Assembly (NCBI RefSeq): GCF_006345805.1
Contig: NC_043005.1
Location: 51,646,001 to 51,710,000, forward strand
From: Octopus sinensis
Lineage: Eukaryota
Direction: 5' to 3'
DNA length: 64,000 nt
Numbering within the stretch: position 1 is the first letter of the stretch; every line of letters begins with the position of its first letter. The notes beneath the pieces are model-generated. The model was not told the origin of the DNA and did not search any database. It saw only the letters and a list, made by a program, of their open reading frames with translations. This document shows, one piece after another, positions 407 through 41,472 of this stretch. Position numbers and translations under genes: made by a program.

Positions 407-1131
407 ATATTTAAATAATGAAGGAGATAAATTAATATTAATTTTAATATCAATTTAAAACCAGTAGTCTAGCATACAAAAATCTGAGAAGTCAGAGAAA
501 ATTCTAATATATGTGTATATTGGCAGGGCAAGACTGCTAGGTAGTCGGCCGTATGCTAGAAATAGATCATCAACGATCAAACTACAAAGAAAATTCTCTA
601 GAGGAAAAATTCAGCGAACACCAGAACCAAATTTGGCGGGCAGGACATGAAAATTTATATAAAAAACAGAATTAAATGCATACCTCGGTTTCGGTCTTTA
701 CCAACAGAATTACTTACATAATTCAAATGTCCGTGGCTTCATCAGTGCAATCGTTCAGTGTAAATGCAATCCGAAAAACTAACCCCAGCTTTCTGTGCCA
801 AGACAGACACGTGCTTAGTTTTACCGATTACATTAGGGATAACATTTCAAATGTCTTGGTTCCGGCGCGCTAAGAAATTCCTGAAGCAAAGAACTGCAGT
901 AAATAATTCACTGCGGTTAGTGCTTGCTACTAGAGAACGTATTTATTTCAATATTTAAATAATGAGGGAGATAAATTAATATTAATTTTAATATAAATTC
1001 AAAACCAGTAGTCTAGCATACAAAAAATCTGATAAGTCAGAGAAAATTCTAATATATGTGTATATTGGCAGGGCAAGACTGCTAGGTAGTCGGCCGTATG
1101 CTAGAAATAGATCATCAACGATCAAACTACA
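407..1131 (-). mobile_element. Non-autonomous Penelope pLTR/retrozyme-like element: ~545 bp unit plus ~180 bp terminal direct repeat, flanked by (TA)n
   Basis: 407-586 is repeated at 951-1131; hammerhead-like motif at 677-749 on the minus strand; (TA)n on both sides. Confidence 0.7.
677..749 (-). ncRNA. Type I hammerhead ribozyme-like motif
   Basis: Minus strand UGCA-CUGAUGA-(long helix II incl. GAAUUAU/GUAAUUC)-GAAAC-CGAG-GUA-UGCA; base of helix II imperfect. Confidence 0.55.
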
Positions 1132-1684
1132 TATATATATATATATATATATGTATGTATATTTCTATAGATATATATATATATGTACAGACATGTACAA
1201 ATATATATTATTTATAATATACATATATATATATACATATATACACATATAGATGTGTATATGTATACGCTTATATACAGGGGTGTATATATATATATAT
1301 ATATTATAAATTATATATGTATATTATAAATAATATATATTTGTACATGTCTGTATATATACATATATAGAAATACACATGCATATATATATACACATAC
1401 ATACATAGATACATGTGCGCGCACACACACACACACACACACACACATACAAGTAAAAATGAAAACACAAATCATATTTTCTTTTGTCATGCCTAGTAAG
1501 GGAAGGTAACAAACTTCAGGATGAAAATTGAAGTTGATCTCGGCGGAATTTGAATGCAAGGTATGCGTGTGTATGGAATATTCAACTACTTGAGCGATAC
1601 GAAATATCGCAACGAAACGAAATAAATAGGAAAACCTTAGTCAACAGCCCTTTTATCCAATGCAGAATTTCTCCACACCAGTAG

Positions 1685-1915
1685 AACTATAATTATTTCT
1701 TTCTTCAACAAGCTCAAGACCTGGAATTTTGGGGGTAGGAGTTAATCGATTACATCGACCCTAGGGTTCAACTTGTATTTATTTTAATGATTCCCGAAAA
1801 GATTGAAAGCCTGAATCGATCTCAGCGGCATTTAATCTCAGAACTTAAAACCGGAAGAATTGTCGCTAAGTGTTTTGTCCGGCGGACTAACGATTCTGCC
1901 AGTTCGCTGCCCTTA
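1685..1915 (-). mobile_element. Degenerate SINE family B
   Basis: Similar to the reverse complement of the 36598 copy; ends in aacgattctgccagttcgctgcc. Confidence 0.65.
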
Positions 1916-2054
1916 GACGTGTAATAGGGATATAATACATACAATATAGCGCAATATTAAGATAAACACACCAGTAAAATGCAGTATTCACAAATAAAAA
2001 CAATGGACCAACGAATGAAAGCAGAACTTAAAATTCCCATGTGAGCATCTACAC

Positions 2055-2275
2055 CAGTGGTTCCGAACCTGTGGCCCGTGGAGTCCTGATGGTCTGCAAA
2101 GGTAGTACCGGGGATTCGTGAACTAAATTCAAAATTTCATATATATATATATATATATATATATATATATATATATATATATATGGGAATAAGCATATTA
2201 AAAGGGGTCCGTGAGAAAACTGATTTAAATAGAAGGGCTGGCTGGGAACCACTGTAAAAAGGTTGGGAACCACTG
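2055..2275. mobile_element. hAT (Charlie-like) MITE
   Basis: TIRs cagtggttccgaacct / aggttgggaaccactg; 8 bp TSD not preserved; internal (TA)n. Confidence 0.7.
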
Positions 2276-37685: not shown

Positions 37686-38742
37686 TCTTATGGTGCATTA
37701 TTAACATTATTACCATTAGTCTTTAGAGCCTCAACTTCTAACTTCGTCAACCAATGTCCTCTGAATAATTTTCCTTTATCACATATTTGTTGTTCAATGC
37801 AAGATGTATCCCTGAATATTTCTTTTCATTACAGTGTGAAACAAATTAAAAAGTTTTATTGTCTTTCGTTTGTAAGTGTTATTTCTTATTTGCTTCTATC
37901 GAGAAGTCAAGGAAAAATATTATCATTCCCTTCAAACATTGCTTTTGTGGCCAGGACATCAATATTTTGAAACTGACCTATTTTCCATTACATCTTAGAC
38001 AGATTCAGCGTTGAGTTGCTGAAGCAGAAATATCGTTATGGCAAATATTCTGCTCAATGCCAAGAATTTCCTTGTCAGTTGCTTGACCTTAACCGCTTGG
38101 CCATGTTCCTTAGTGGCTGGCAATATGTGCATATCTGATCATGTACAGGAGTAGTGGGAGAGCATCATAGTCATGTGTTGAAAGGGATTTTGGGTGTTTT
38201 AATAAATGTAACAAAAGCAATGTTTGAAGGAAATATTAGCCATTTTTCGTACATTCTAGGGTTAAGCAAAAAGGAAGTAACAGTTGCTACCCAAGGACAA
38301 AAATCGTGTTAGACAGTGTGTTATCTAATCATTTATTAGAAGTATGCTAACCGAAAACGAACATTTATGACGGCTTGAAAGCAGCGTCGAAGAAAACATT
38401 AACATTTATTTCTGGATTTCTTGTGCCCATCATGTTCTTAGTCCTACTGTCGTTGGTGCCGGATTATTTTGCCGCTCTGGTCTCATTCGTATTAGTGTAT
38501 CCTGACAAGCAGATAGTCGGATTTCAAGGAATATGTTTTTTATAACTTCAAATTAGAGATGTGATAATCACTTCCGGCTGGCAGTAAGTTGTTGCTGTTG
38601 TTATTGTTATTGCTATTCTTCTTGTTGTTGTTATCATCATAATCATCGTCATTATTATTATTATTATTTTATTATTATTATTATTATTATTATTATTATT
38701 ATTATTATTATTATTATTATTATTGTTACTATTCGATCAGGG

Positions 38743-39130
38743 GGTGGGGTAGCGGTGTTGCTCAGAAAAGGCCTTGTTCTTGAGATATGGTTGGTCTTTC
38801 TGGACCCGGAAGGTAAGTTGGTGGTCCTGGACATGACTGATAATGAAGGCAGTGCTTTTAGACTGGACACTGTGCATGTACCAATTGAGTTATCAACGAC
38901 ATTAGCGGCAGCGAGTCGTTAAAAAAATCTATAGTAATTTGCGTGTGAAAAGAGCTTCCATCACTAGCTGGTGATTAACACACTCTAGGGACGGGTAACT
39001 CCCTAGACTCGAGTCTGTGTGTATCACGTAAGACAAGAGATGGAAGCGATGACCTCTCCTAGCAACTGCTAATCGGACATAGAATGTGCGTGGTTAGCCA
39101 GCTGGAGGAGATGTCTTCCTAGGGCTATAA
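38743..39130 (+). pseudogene. AP-endonuclease fragment of an L1/Tx1-like LINE ORF2
   Basis: GGVAVLLRKGLVLEIWLVFLDPEGKLVVLDMTDNEGSAFRLDTVHVP, later LAGD*; matches APE motifs GGVAVL / D..GR / VYAP / GDFN. Confidence 0.7.
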
Positions 39131-41107
39131 ACATCAGTAGCACTGTCCTGTATAGGACGCCGCTCTTAGTTGGCAAATATATGTATGTATATATATATAT
39201 ATATATATATTATATATTATACATACATACATACATACATACATACATACATACAACATAATACATACATACATAAATGTACATATATATATTCATATAT
39301 ATATATAATACTTAGATAAAACTTAGATATGTTTCGACCAAGATGGTCCAGGCCATGTCTACTTGATAGCACCACCTGATAGGATTATGAATCCTGTTAA
39401 GTCAAGTGTGTTTATGGTCCATTCAAGTAGTGAGTTTTTGTTGGGTGAGTTGTATCCAATTATAGGTGGCTTATCTGGTATTCTTGAAGGAATCTATCAG
39501 ACTCCGTTTAAAAATATATATAGAATATTCATATTATATATATTATATATATATATATATATATATATATATATATATATATATATATATATATATCATT
39601 TATATATATATATATATATATAATATAATATCATTTATATATATATATATATATATATATAATATCATTTATATATATATATATAATATCATTATATATA
39701 TATATATATATATATAATATCATTTATATATATATATAATATATATATAATATATAATATCATTTATTTATATATATATATATATATAATATAATATAAT
39801 ATAATATAATATATATATATATAATATATATATATATATATATATATATATATATATATATATAAATTATACATGACATTTCTCAATTTCAAAATGTGAA
39901 ATTCGTGTGATAAAGCAGGATACTAAAACCCGGTGGTATATACACACCCACACACTATCTACCTGTCTGCCTGCCTGTCTGTCTGTCTGTCTGTCTATTG
40001 TTGTCTGTCTGTCTCTCTATATCTATCTATCTATCTATCTATCTATCTATCTATCTATCTATCTATCTATCTATCTATCTATCTATCTATCTATCTATCT
40101 ATCTATATGTGCGTATATATCTATCGCTTGTTCCCGTTGTATATATATATATATATATACACACACACATATATATAACCTTCGAAACACCCTGGAGTTG
40201 AACTAGGGACAGCTGATGAAGGGGATTTTTCCTTGTGTAGTTTGTCTTGTAGTCTGTTTTTTTTTCGTTTAGGTCCGTTTCCACGTTTGTTTTTACGTTT
40301 TCATTTCTCGTTGAGTTCTACGTCTATTTGTGGTGTCCTGTACTCACGTATATATATTTATATATGCATGTATATATACATGTAGATGTAGGTACGTAAA
40401 TATATGTATGTATGTATGCATATATTTTATTTATTACACCATTATATATATATATACATACGCAGGCGATCGTGTGTACATGTGAGTGTATGTGTACATA
40501 TGTTTGTATGTGCATGCATATACGCACGTGTGTGTTAGTGCGTATGTATGCCATGTGTATGCGTACAAACTTATACGACTCCATTTTGTTATCCAATATT
40601 ATTGCTCCAGTACATTTCTCGCTGTCGTACTCATTGCACTCAACATTCAACAAAACCCAACTAACAACAGACACGCTCTCCACATCTTTAAAAGGTGCGG
40701 TGCCGGTGCACACAGAATTACGTTGACCTCTTTAAAACTTGTATGAAGCAATGGTGTTTAATGCATCTTAGGAACAAGAAAGAAAGCCATTTCTAGAAAA
40801 TAGTGTTTTAATAATCAGGTTAGTCACACCCTAGAATCACTCTCATTCACGTGACACATTACCTTCCATGAAAACCTCAATATTAGCGGTAGTGTATTCT
40901 TTCTCATCTTTATCTACTCTTCTCTATCCGTTGTTTTTGCCTAATAATCTATATATCTATCATCTATCTATCTATCTATAGATCTATCTATCTATCTATC
41001 TATCTATCTATCTATCATCTATATATCTATATGTATATATATATATATATATATATATAATATATATATATATATATATATATATATATATATATTATAT
41101 AATATAT

Positions 41108-41472
41108 ATACTTTCAACAATATAAGGAATGGCCCTGATAGGCCTTCGACTCACTAGAAAGAGCAGCCAAACTCAAACCGCTAAATAGTTGTAATTCTGA
41201 AATTGAAAGAGAAATAAAAACATTTACCCTTTTCATTGGACTATGCATAGTTTCGACAAACTTTTGTAAACAAATTAATTAATTAAATTAAATTTATTTA
41301 CAACTGGCGTGTCTCGTCAGCAGAGAAGCCGAGGACGAGAATACGTCCACGAGGCGACAGCAAGGAAGCCTCAAGCCTATATGCTCTAAATTTTCAAAAT
41401 CCACCGCCACCGCGCGGTGACACGCCAGTTGTAAATAAATTTAATTTTTCTAGGATTTTTTTGCTACCCCTA
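41108..41472 (-). mobile_element. Hammerhead-bearing pLTR/retrozyme-like element within (TA)n, with 29 bp inverted arms
   Basis: Arms 41285-41313 / 41419-41447; ctagaaagagcagccaaa motif; (TA)n both sides. Confidence 0.65.
41232..41327 (-). ncRNA. Type I hammerhead ribozyme motif
   Basis: CUGACGA-GACA..UUGUAAAUAAAUU/AAUUUGUUUACAA..UGUC-GAAAC-UAUGCAUA-GUC; 12 nt palindrome ACUAUGCAUAGU; helix I imperfect (UUCUCUG/CAAUGAA). Confidence 0.75.

Follow-up and report, generated by a model that had tools for sequence, protein, structure and literature searches.

The Octopus sinensis stretch analysed here (64,000 nucleotides of contig NC_043005.1 in assembly GCF_006345805.1, positions 51,646,001 to 51,710,000; hereafter the window) contains five elements associated with (TA)n microsatellites: elements A, C, D and E, and a tandem array of hammerhead units (Table 1). 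The best explanation of the five taken together, and probably the correct one, is that they are non-coding derivatives of the 3′ ends (the pseudo-long-terminal-repeat, pLTR, region) of Hydra-clade Penelope-like elements (PLEs), moved in trans. An initial annotation of the same DNA had proposed one 3′ module shared by the array and the other elements, acting as a conserved cis-signal for a Penelope-type enzyme that targets (TA)n. All of the motifs that it quoted were found at their places. Support is good for a Penelope-type partner that targets (TA)n, and the Hydra clade can be given as its name, but to call the module a single homologous signal over all five elements is an overstatement. The annotation also appears to have missed the identity of the A/C/D stem with a hammerhead helix II, and it missed the match of two end positions to a PLE tail.

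The module of elements A, C and D

Element A (in both of its module copies, A1 and A2), element C and element D are one family. They are mutually homologous over 170–200 nt at 63–77% identity (E-values 1e-5 to 1e-31, z-scores 6.5–39), and D is about 77% identical to C. The repeat at 407–586 that had been annotated earlier is real, but it represents one end of a 544-nt unit that is present in 1.33 copies (411–1130) and carries a hammerhead-like core at 745–681.

Each module contains a stem whose arms in A are TCTAGCATAC (560–551, minus strand) and GTATGCTAGA (477–468). The stem of C has 13 bp including G-U pairs (positions 5631/5721), and D carries the variant TTTAGCAT/ATGCTAAG (5927, 6014). 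Across the family, all 40 cells of the 10-bp stem are paired, with double changes in two of the ten pairs and two further single changes; controls in which the arms were slid were just 17–48% paired. The stem is recovered when each module, that of the array included, is folded alone on the hammerhead strand (z −2.4 to −3.4), and since the opposite strands reach z −1.4 to −4.7, folding gives no strand preference. Between the arms lies an insertion of about 75 nt that folds into two or three small hairpins, with a cUUCGg loop in both C and D. A covariance model (CM) was trained on A1, A2, C and D; when the window was scanned with it, the sole significant matches beyond the training copies were the inverted arms of C and D. 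The module pattern had no matches in bacterial and archaeal genomes.

It could be argued that two unrelated families are involved, in which the A/C/D stem is a neutral hammerhead relic, in which covariation and arm identity come from hairpin-driven DNA repair or gene conversion, and in which the likeness of the array is due to chance. This is rather improbable. C and D do lie in tandem with a period of 297 and could be one old duplication, but the stem is unbroken at 23–37% divergence although its arms stand 75 nt apart, and the inner hairpins, including the cUUCGg loop, are kept as well.

The TCTAG/CTAGA stem is most likely helix II of a hammerhead ribozyme, as judged from three lines of comparison with Hydra-clade PLEs (PMC8557442; statements on this and the other cited papers refer to the portions of them that were available). 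Firstly, a by-eye reading of the published 3′ end of Hydra-1_Obim against the window sequence places eight collinear blocks in A: 13/13 with two 1-nt gaps, 10/11, 9/10 and 6/6, followed by the core heptamer (5/6), the 5′ arm of helix II (7/8), CTAG (4/4) and helix III with a T-run (10/12). The corresponding blocks in C match at 19/25, 7/8, 4/4 and 11/12, and the distance from the cleavage position to the end is 36 nt in both C and Hydra-1_Obim, and 48 nt in A. Secondly, the combination of a TCTAG/CTAGA helix II with an ACCA/TGGT helix III is found in only the octopus family among the 25 in the Hydra hammerhead table. Thirdly, the 3′ untranslated regions (UTRs) of five non-octopus Hydra elements gave z ≤ 1.4 in all 15 comparisons with A, C and D, and the match to Hydra-1_Obim is therefore family-specific. 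By eye, A, C and D thus appear to descend from a Hydra-1_Obim-like end.

Compared with an intact hammerhead, the A/C/D module no longer has the GAA core or a 5′ strand for helix I, and it has gained the insertion in loop II. In place of the type I core (CUGANGA ... GAAA ... NUH), it has the heptamer UUGAUGA or UUGACGU, and GAA is absent. Helix II remains throughout and helix III remains in A and C; in order, helix II is followed by helix III and then by an AT-rich tail of 31–48 nt that runs into (TA)n. Because both the helix I strand and the GAA core are lost, the module is predicted to be non-cleaving. Given the stem, 0.11% of 20,000 shuffles of the flanking sequence reproduced both hammerhead flanks, and a generic hammerhead skeleton without GAA matches A1, A2 and C, as well as one further hammerhead with a full core. 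Tandem complete hammerheads are absent from these elements: a single core is present in A and in E, no complete one in C or D, and the A and E regions gave no Rfam hammerhead match at E ≤ 10.

The retrozyme array, element E and the Hydra tail

By those of the published criteria that DNA sequence can address, the array is a non-LTR (non-long-terminal-repeat) retrozyme. A type I hammerhead recurs in consecutive tandem units, 15 of the 19 units score at or above the Rfam Hammerhead_1 gathering score, and the monomer of 397 nt with 33–35% GC falls within the published limits (about 300–400 nt and <45% GC). In the window, the Rfam gathering score is passed solely by these hammerheads. Each unit also contains a 13-bp stem, GTGTTTCTAGTAC/GTGCTAGAAACAC, whose 5′ arm is found in all 19 units and whose 3′ arm is present 20 times; the last stem has a pairing probability of about 0.75 in the circular monomer fold. 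The units between 13351 and 20914 differ at eight substitution columns and by one 3-nt indel in 8 of 19 units, and since these variants occur in mixed combinations, the array was not copied from one uniform circle.

The array is linked to A, C and D by a 7-mer at the right distance from the (TA)n end and by a 13-bp partner arm. Pure tracts were defined as (TA)≥5. TGCTA(GA/AG) occurs 30–70 nt upstream of a tract at four of 166 tract edges, which are exactly those of A, C, D and the array, and about 0.25 chance matches of TGCTAGA are expected over all 166. A descriptor of a TCTAG..CTAGA stem of at least 8 bp with (TA)n 30–70 nt further on, which was drawn from the elements that it tests, found three matches against a shuffle mean of 0.03 (maximum 1, over 200 shuffles). 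The 7-mer, the spacing and the descriptor are suggestive, but not proof, that the array shares the module, and the reading of its stem as a more distant version of the A/C/D structure is slightly favoured. ACCA follows the 3′ arm of the array, but a hammerhead origin of the stem is no more than probable because there is no upstream core.

Two of the rival explanations bear on this link. One of them is the original proposal, in which a single homologous TCTAG/TGCTAGA cis-signal occurs in the five elements alike and TA microhomology at the loop positions each junction. The same 7-mers stand on both arms, four elements end at a spacing of 40–57 nt, the motif at four tract edges belongs to these elements alone, the stem descriptor matches well above its shuffle mean, the CM keeps the array in register over the whole stretch between arm and end, and the array tail compared with the A tail gives z 2.6. 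This proposal is nevertheless unlikely: A, C and D can be aligned with one another, but the array cannot be aligned significantly with any of them, its CM score equals background, and E has only one arm. Under the other, the chance likeness assumed by the two-family explanation, the sequence is AT-rich; CTAG is self-complementary, so that one shared 7-mer implies the other; the array scores z −0.9 and 0.2 against C and D; and TTTCTA recurs at the tail ends of C and D and in the element at 12426. Set against this, about 0.25 matches are expected by chance, and the observed one falls at an element that has both a hammerhead and a 13-bp partner arm. Placement of the array by alignment with A, C and D was rejected, as it misplaced the array arms.

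The tail of the array points to the Hydra clade more directly than the stem does. By eye, a hairpin with a 4-bp GC-closed stem, an inner stem and a 2-nt 3′ bulge followed by ACT is present in all three long published Hydra consensus ends, and the array tail carries a hairpin of this shape (Table 1). A descriptor of this hairpin matched twice in six Hydra loci, both times 37–38 nt before (TA)n (null mean 0.24), and in the window it matched the array tail alone; among shuffled sequences, it was found in 15 of 5000 units and in 4 of 20,000 last-49-nt stretches. The six loci (L001–L006), from four bacterial assemblies, encode Hydra-type PLE proteins together with hammerheads and (TA)n, and they are most likely animal host DNA inside those assemblies. 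One of 30 control alignments, between the array and the L001 UTR, reached z 3.5 and was read as AT-rich noise.

Relics of Hydra-type open reading frames (ORFs) also lie in the window. Insertion into (TA)n is recorded for 26 of the 27 listed Hydra families, which carry a hammerhead near the 3′ end, and a CxCx5C linker is the mark of the clade (PMC8557442). An exhaustive protein search found 21 relatives of the fragment at 63310–63999, 17 of them with this linker; a word-indexed protein search with its 77-residue endonuclease piece returned nothing, and Pfam was blank. Matches to the Hydra profile in the window are confined to 63310–63738 and 26469–27035, with none in A, C, D, E or the array, and an autonomous Hydra PLE (a single ORF with reverse transcriptase (RT), a GIY-YIG endonuclease at the C-terminus and a CxCX5C linker) is absent. 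The 63310–63999 fragment is a candidate pointer to the clade of the partner and does not itself align with the module. As the direct partner it was rejected: TCTAG lies 52 nt before its (TA)n, but alignment gave no support and TCTAG is unenriched, which leaves a hint only. In its 3′ UTR (63140–63200, minus strand), two short blocks resemble the Hydra-2_Amil-type UTR of locus L005, and the alignment as a whole is not significant. Naiad_Obim was likewise rejected as partner, as the module is missing from its last 280 nt or so and Naiads are described without canonical hammerheads.

Element E shows a distant relationship to the array (z 4.7–5.4) in the region of its hammerhead and of the AT-rich motif that follows. 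Its TTTCTAG sits 79 nt past the GUC cleavage triplet at 41239, in agreement with the earlier placement about 80 nt downstream of a hammerhead at 41232, and the 3′ end lies in TA about 50 nt further on. E has the 5′ arm only, with no 3′ arm after the loop; the CTAGAAA at its opposite end pairs with a probability of just 0.31 in a circular fold, and CM matches to E have E-values of 3.9 and 7.1. The view that E is an exact circular permutation is possible but weak. A perfect inverted repeat of about 29 bp (41285–41313/41419–41447) pairs with a strand of helix II, which in the folding model would mask this helix and keep the ribozyme inactive; folding of the entire element gives z −6.3. The right end of E was also considered as an inverted C-type tail, and this was rejected (z 0.6).

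Several results weigh against a common Hydra origin of these elements. The covariation that had been proposed as a check is present, in two compensatory double changes and an unbroken stem, but it is thin: it comes from three independent sequences, its score is reached by 18 of 500 shuffles and its number of double changes by 106 of 500. The likeness of A, C and D to Hydra-1_Obim comes from a by-eye reading that carries no computed E-value; the hammerhead skeleton fails to match D and matches the window at five unrelated places as well; and the minimum-energy fold of C spends the helix III letters on a tail hairpin. A CM search of the six Hydra loci found nothing significant. The Hydra fragments in the window have no clear hammerhead and score z ≤ 0.8 against A, C and D. 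For the array, alignments with A, C and D are not significant (z 1.6, −0.9 and 0.2), the upstream core heptamer is absent, and the CM score of the module, with arms and end placed in register, is 17.5 bits (E about 0.5), a level that unrelated DNA also attains (17.3 bits). Against autonomous Hydra ends, the array and E offer short motifs and the shape of the tail hairpin only, and the match to an autonomous PLE terminus that the initial annotation had anticipated is limited to the by-eye likeness of A, C and D. The array ends 14 nt past its tail hairpin, compared with 27–45 nt in Hydra. The hairpin descriptor was written after the match of the array had been noticed, and this evidence is therefore supportive, not decisive. 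Finally, TCTAG shows no overall enrichment upstream of (TA)n, with 5 occurrences at 166 edges where about 3.4 would be expected.

Junctions with (TA)n, tails and fold-backs

All ten junctions of the elements lie within 15 nt of a pure tract, and seven of them within 1 nt, whereas 1.4% of non-tract positions lie within 3 nt and 7.3% within 20 nt of one. The predicted enrichment of (TA)n is hence borne out, and the boundaries of A, of the array and of the C and D arms are defined by a second copy rather than by the tract. Past the 3′ arm, the elements continue for 57 nt (A), 45 nt (C), 49 nt (array) and about 40 nt (D); the range of 45–60 nt after TGCTAGA that had been given earlier covers the first three and is slightly narrow for D.

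The proposal that junctions fall at an internal TATA loop and are resolved by TA microhomology describes the left end of the array, where the match is 7 nt. The others fit it less well. C and D break at the same GTAT, at which D has no TATA run and the TA register of C is shifted by one base; the 5′ end of A (1130) lies outside the loop with a match of 1–2 nt; and the 3′ ends of A and the array have only 2–3 nt in common with the flank. Since clear microhomology is confined to the array left end, it can be inferred that the internal GTAT site is a fixed RT start site for which TA pairing acts as a helper. These junctions also count against one cis-signal positioned by microhomology, for which the array left end is the favourable case.

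The internal site follows TTTCTAG by 31 nt in the array and by 48–50 nt in C, D and E. The sequence beyond it is present at one end only: the array consists of 19 units plus a tail of about 75–80 nt, and C and D each consist of a tailed copy and an inverted copy that lacks the last 88 nt (C) or 78 nt (D). In PLE insertions, a tail is often confined to one end, and a truncated copy in inverted orientation often adjoins the 5′ end (PMC8557442). Correspondingly, partial tandems are seen in A (1.33-mer) and in the array (19.2-mer), and adjacent inverted, 5′-truncated copies in C and D. Among six published Hydra consensus ends, three extend 36–47 nt past the cleavage site and three extend 88–116 nt. 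Similarly, close relatives of Hydra-2_Amil in the loci from bacterial assemblies stop at 27–40 nt, at an internal TA-rich site, and the consensus runs for 97 nt. On this analysis, the 75–90 nt between the two end positions would be better explained by a PLE tail that arises from two RT start sites than by TA microhomology.

In the proposed mechanism, the RT/GIY-YIG protein of a Hydra element would nick (TA)n and mobilise the non-coding elements in trans. The fold of the dead hammerhead may have been kept as a handle for RT loading; the retention of shape after the loss of the catalytic letters hints that the shape itself is gripped by the mobilising enzyme. Reverse transcription would start at the far end of the tail or at the TA-rich site in the insertion, 75–90 nt upstream. 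Two such start sites could account for a tail at one end only, in the array (19 units plus tail) and in C and D (a tailed and an inverted tail-less copy), and for the tail-less E. TA microhomology may aid some second-strand junctions, such as the array left end, without setting their positions.

The fold-back arms of C and D are identical at 87/88 and 83/88 positions within each element, and at about 70/91 between the elements, a divergence of 23%. Both the fold-back centre and the internal break point are common to C and D, and by eye the turn corresponds to a short TGTT..AACA hairpin in the Hydra-1_Obim UTR. The shared turn suggests snap-back of nascent complementary DNA (cDNA), probably at a short hairpin in the template; the arms would then be remade at each insertion. 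Alternatively, an old tandem duplication may have been followed by gene conversion between the arms. A hairpin in A at the site equivalent to the fold-back is weak (−2.6 kcal/mol). The stronger proposal, in which a hammerhead has turned into a non-catalytic, covarying RT-loading structure in the array and the fold-backs alike, with two start sites, a programmed snap-back and a conserved tail hairpin, is a possible but doubtful one. If it were true, the role of the hammerhead in PLEs would be structural, not catalytic, and the tail hairpin would be conserved over cnidarian, echinoderm, crustacean and cephalopod Hydra elements.

Inverted repeats such as those of C and D are also expected if the elements moved as DNA, either with Helitron/Helentron-type ends or as fold-backs resembling miniature inverted-repeat transposable elements (MITEs), with (TA)n as target or grown at the ends. 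Helitron-type elements can seed tandem arrays, and they are defined by a terminal CTRR with a GC-rich hairpin 10–12 nt upstream. TGCTAG also terminates a Helitron-like element in the window, at 58921–58948. Movement as DNA is nonetheless very improbable. The pattern of GC-rich hairpin plus CTAG matches 58921–58948 and none of the present elements, which run 40–57 nt past CTAG; in C and D the repeats adjoin each other on one side instead of standing at the termini; and hammerheads are found in the array, A and E. The Helitron-like element itself is non-autonomous and extends over 58570–58948, and a similar 5′ end is found at about 21696.

Other structures in the window, which is AT-rich animal DNA dense in microsatellites, include further Hydra-type hammerheads. 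A (TA)n-bounded element at 12426–12895 has one at 12662–12749 (plus strand) with a long AT-rich helix II; its left part aligns on the minus strand with the C tail (z 4.3) and may be an inverted copy. Two minimal Hydra-type cores, at 25353 and 25206, lie in 25000–25553 (minus strand), and the first ends in (TA)n 31 nt later, which is the geometry of a short Hydra end. The region 25490–26320 is a large mirror structure centred on about 25930 (arms 25668–25776/26056–26164, 94%), within which lie microsatellites and the beginning of the 25553 element; it could be a real fold-back or an assembly artefact. A fold-back at 43626–43850 has 110-nt arms (87%) and a complete hammerhead at 43752 (plus strand), with no long (TA)n flanks. 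On the minus strand of 60880–62500, minimal hammerhead-like cores at 61047, 62012 and 62428 lie 73–141 nt before TA-rich tracts; those at 61047 and 62012 are 68% alike, and all three represent PLE ends of another type, without the module. An inverted-repeat element at 60461–60700, between (TA)n tracts, has no relation to the module. The SINEs of the window look octopus-type, and the family-specific likeness to the Octopus bimaculoides consensus agrees with this; a text search for one SINE stretch returned nothing. No Pfam cut-off for a host gene was reached by the 38 of 177 candidate open frames that were scanned, and microRNA matches were rejected as artefacts of microsatellites.

Table 1. 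Positions of the elements and related features in the window.
Feature	Positions	Strand	Description
(TA)n flank	387–410		3′ end of element A
Element A	411–1130	minus	544-nt unit × 1.33; terminal repeat of ~180 nt, 97% identical; between two (TA)n tracts
A1 module	411–586	minus	Core-like heptamer 573–567; arms 560–551 and 477–468; helix-III-like 468–460; 48-nt 3′ tail with AU-rich hairpin
A hammerhead-like core	681–745	minus	CUGAUGA..GAAAC..GUA; 4-bp helix I; base of helix II mismatched; no Rfam match
A2 module	952–1130	minus	Second copy; 5′ end at 1130 adjoins (TA)n outside the loop
Element C	5500–5766	plus	Inverted 88-nt arms 5500–5587/5591–5678 (87/88 identical) and 88-nt tail; core-like 5619–5625; stem 5631–5643/5709–5721; cUUCGg hairpin 5692–5701; helix-III-like 5721–5730, then 36 nt to (TA)n
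Element D	5798–6054	plus	Inverted 88-nt arms 5798–5885/5889–5976 (83/88 identical) and 78-nt tail
Retrozyme array	13327–20963	plus	19.2 × 397 nt; starts in TATATAT loop; (TA)n on both sides
Example array hammerhead	13961–14033	plus	Type I; CCGAAGA core variant; long helix II
Last array module	20850–20919	plus	13-bp stem 20850–20862/20907–20919 around TA-rich loop
Array tail hairpin	20922–20952	plus	Hydra tail shape (GC-closed stem of 4 bp, inner stem, 3′ bulge of 2 nt, ACT); (TA)n follows after 14 nt
Second Hydra-type ORF fragment	26469–27035	plus	More decayed; profile E 3.8e-6
Element E	41108–41472	minus	Single hammerhead 41320–41239; TTTCTAG 41160–41154; CTAGAAA 41453–41447
Hydra-type PLE ORF fragment	63310–63999	minus	Decayed; linker and GIY-YIG endonuclease, with stops and frameshifts; profile E 9e-37

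Relation to known systems

The literature already holds retrozymes as non-autonomous PLE derivatives, the targeting of (TA)n by Hydra elements, PLE tails and inverted copies. What appears to be new is a probable dead hammerhead kept as a structure (A, C and D) and a fixed fold-back point (C and D). In a search of mainly non-subscription literature, with Repbase, Dfam and the O. vulgaris repeat library, which may already hold these families, outside it, no account was found of retrozymes in octopus, of a 3′ structure that derives from a decayed hammerhead, of the fixed fold-back point or of the Hydra tail hairpin.

Hydra-1_Obim (PMC8557442) is like the present elements in its hammerhead near the 3′ end, the 36 nt from cleavage to end (as in C), the TCTAG/CTAGA helix II, the ACCA/TGGT helix III and, by eye, the collinear UTR blocks. 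With the Hydra clade in general, the elements share (TA)n targets, together with the inverted 5′-truncated copies and one-sided tail that are general PLE traits. Unlike Hydra PLEs, neither the array nor A, C, D and E encode an RT or endonuclease, and unlike Hydra-1_Obim, the A/C/D module has an incomplete ribozyme core and about 75 nt inserted in loop II. The tail of 75–90 nt is longer than the 30–40 nt described for PLEs, and in C, D and the array its length is similar to the gap between short and long Hydra ends; C and D share a fixed fold-back centre.

Minimal hammerheads of PLEs (PMC4209133) have long helices II, core variants at position 3 and, in truncated PLEs, dual motifs on opposite strands, all of which find a likeness here. 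They keep the GAAA core, which the A/C/D module does not.

Non-LTR retrozymes (PMC7229834; bioRxiv 10.64898/2026.07.22.740005) have, like the array, a type I hammerhead in each unit of a tandem multimer, and their derivation from PLE terminal repeats has been shown for Xenopus families. The array differs from them in its CCGAAGA core and its helix II of about 45 nt, and A, C, D and E differ in being monomers or fold-backs. The available text of these two papers mentions neither Octopus nor (TA)n-embedded insertions, defined ends or a 3′ structural signal.

In the anole PLE Poseidon_Ac (PAc; PMC11167929), two RT start sites lie downstream of the hammerhead, and the stretch that they bound forms the tail. 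These sites need no homology to the target, and AT-rich DNA is cut and extended on both strands. Furthermore, PAc RNA with a mutated hammerhead still inserts in vitro. The two start sites downstream of the hammerhead and the AT-rich targets are shared with the model proposed here. However, PAc belongs to another clade, has as its start region an AC-rich stem-loop that lies within the ORF, and has a tail of 30–40 nt; in the portion available, the study says nothing on non-autonomous templates.

The function of the hammerhead in PLEs is described as unsettled (PMC8557442), as is partner recognition by retrozymes (bioRxiv 10.64898/2026.07.22.740005). With the catalytic letters lost, the stem kept and the insertion recent (C arms 87/88 identical), A, C and D represent a natural experiment that favours a structural role. 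They and the array name a partner clade, Hydra, for an invertebrate retrozyme, and they offer a minimal RNA of 180 nt with two predicted RT start sites.

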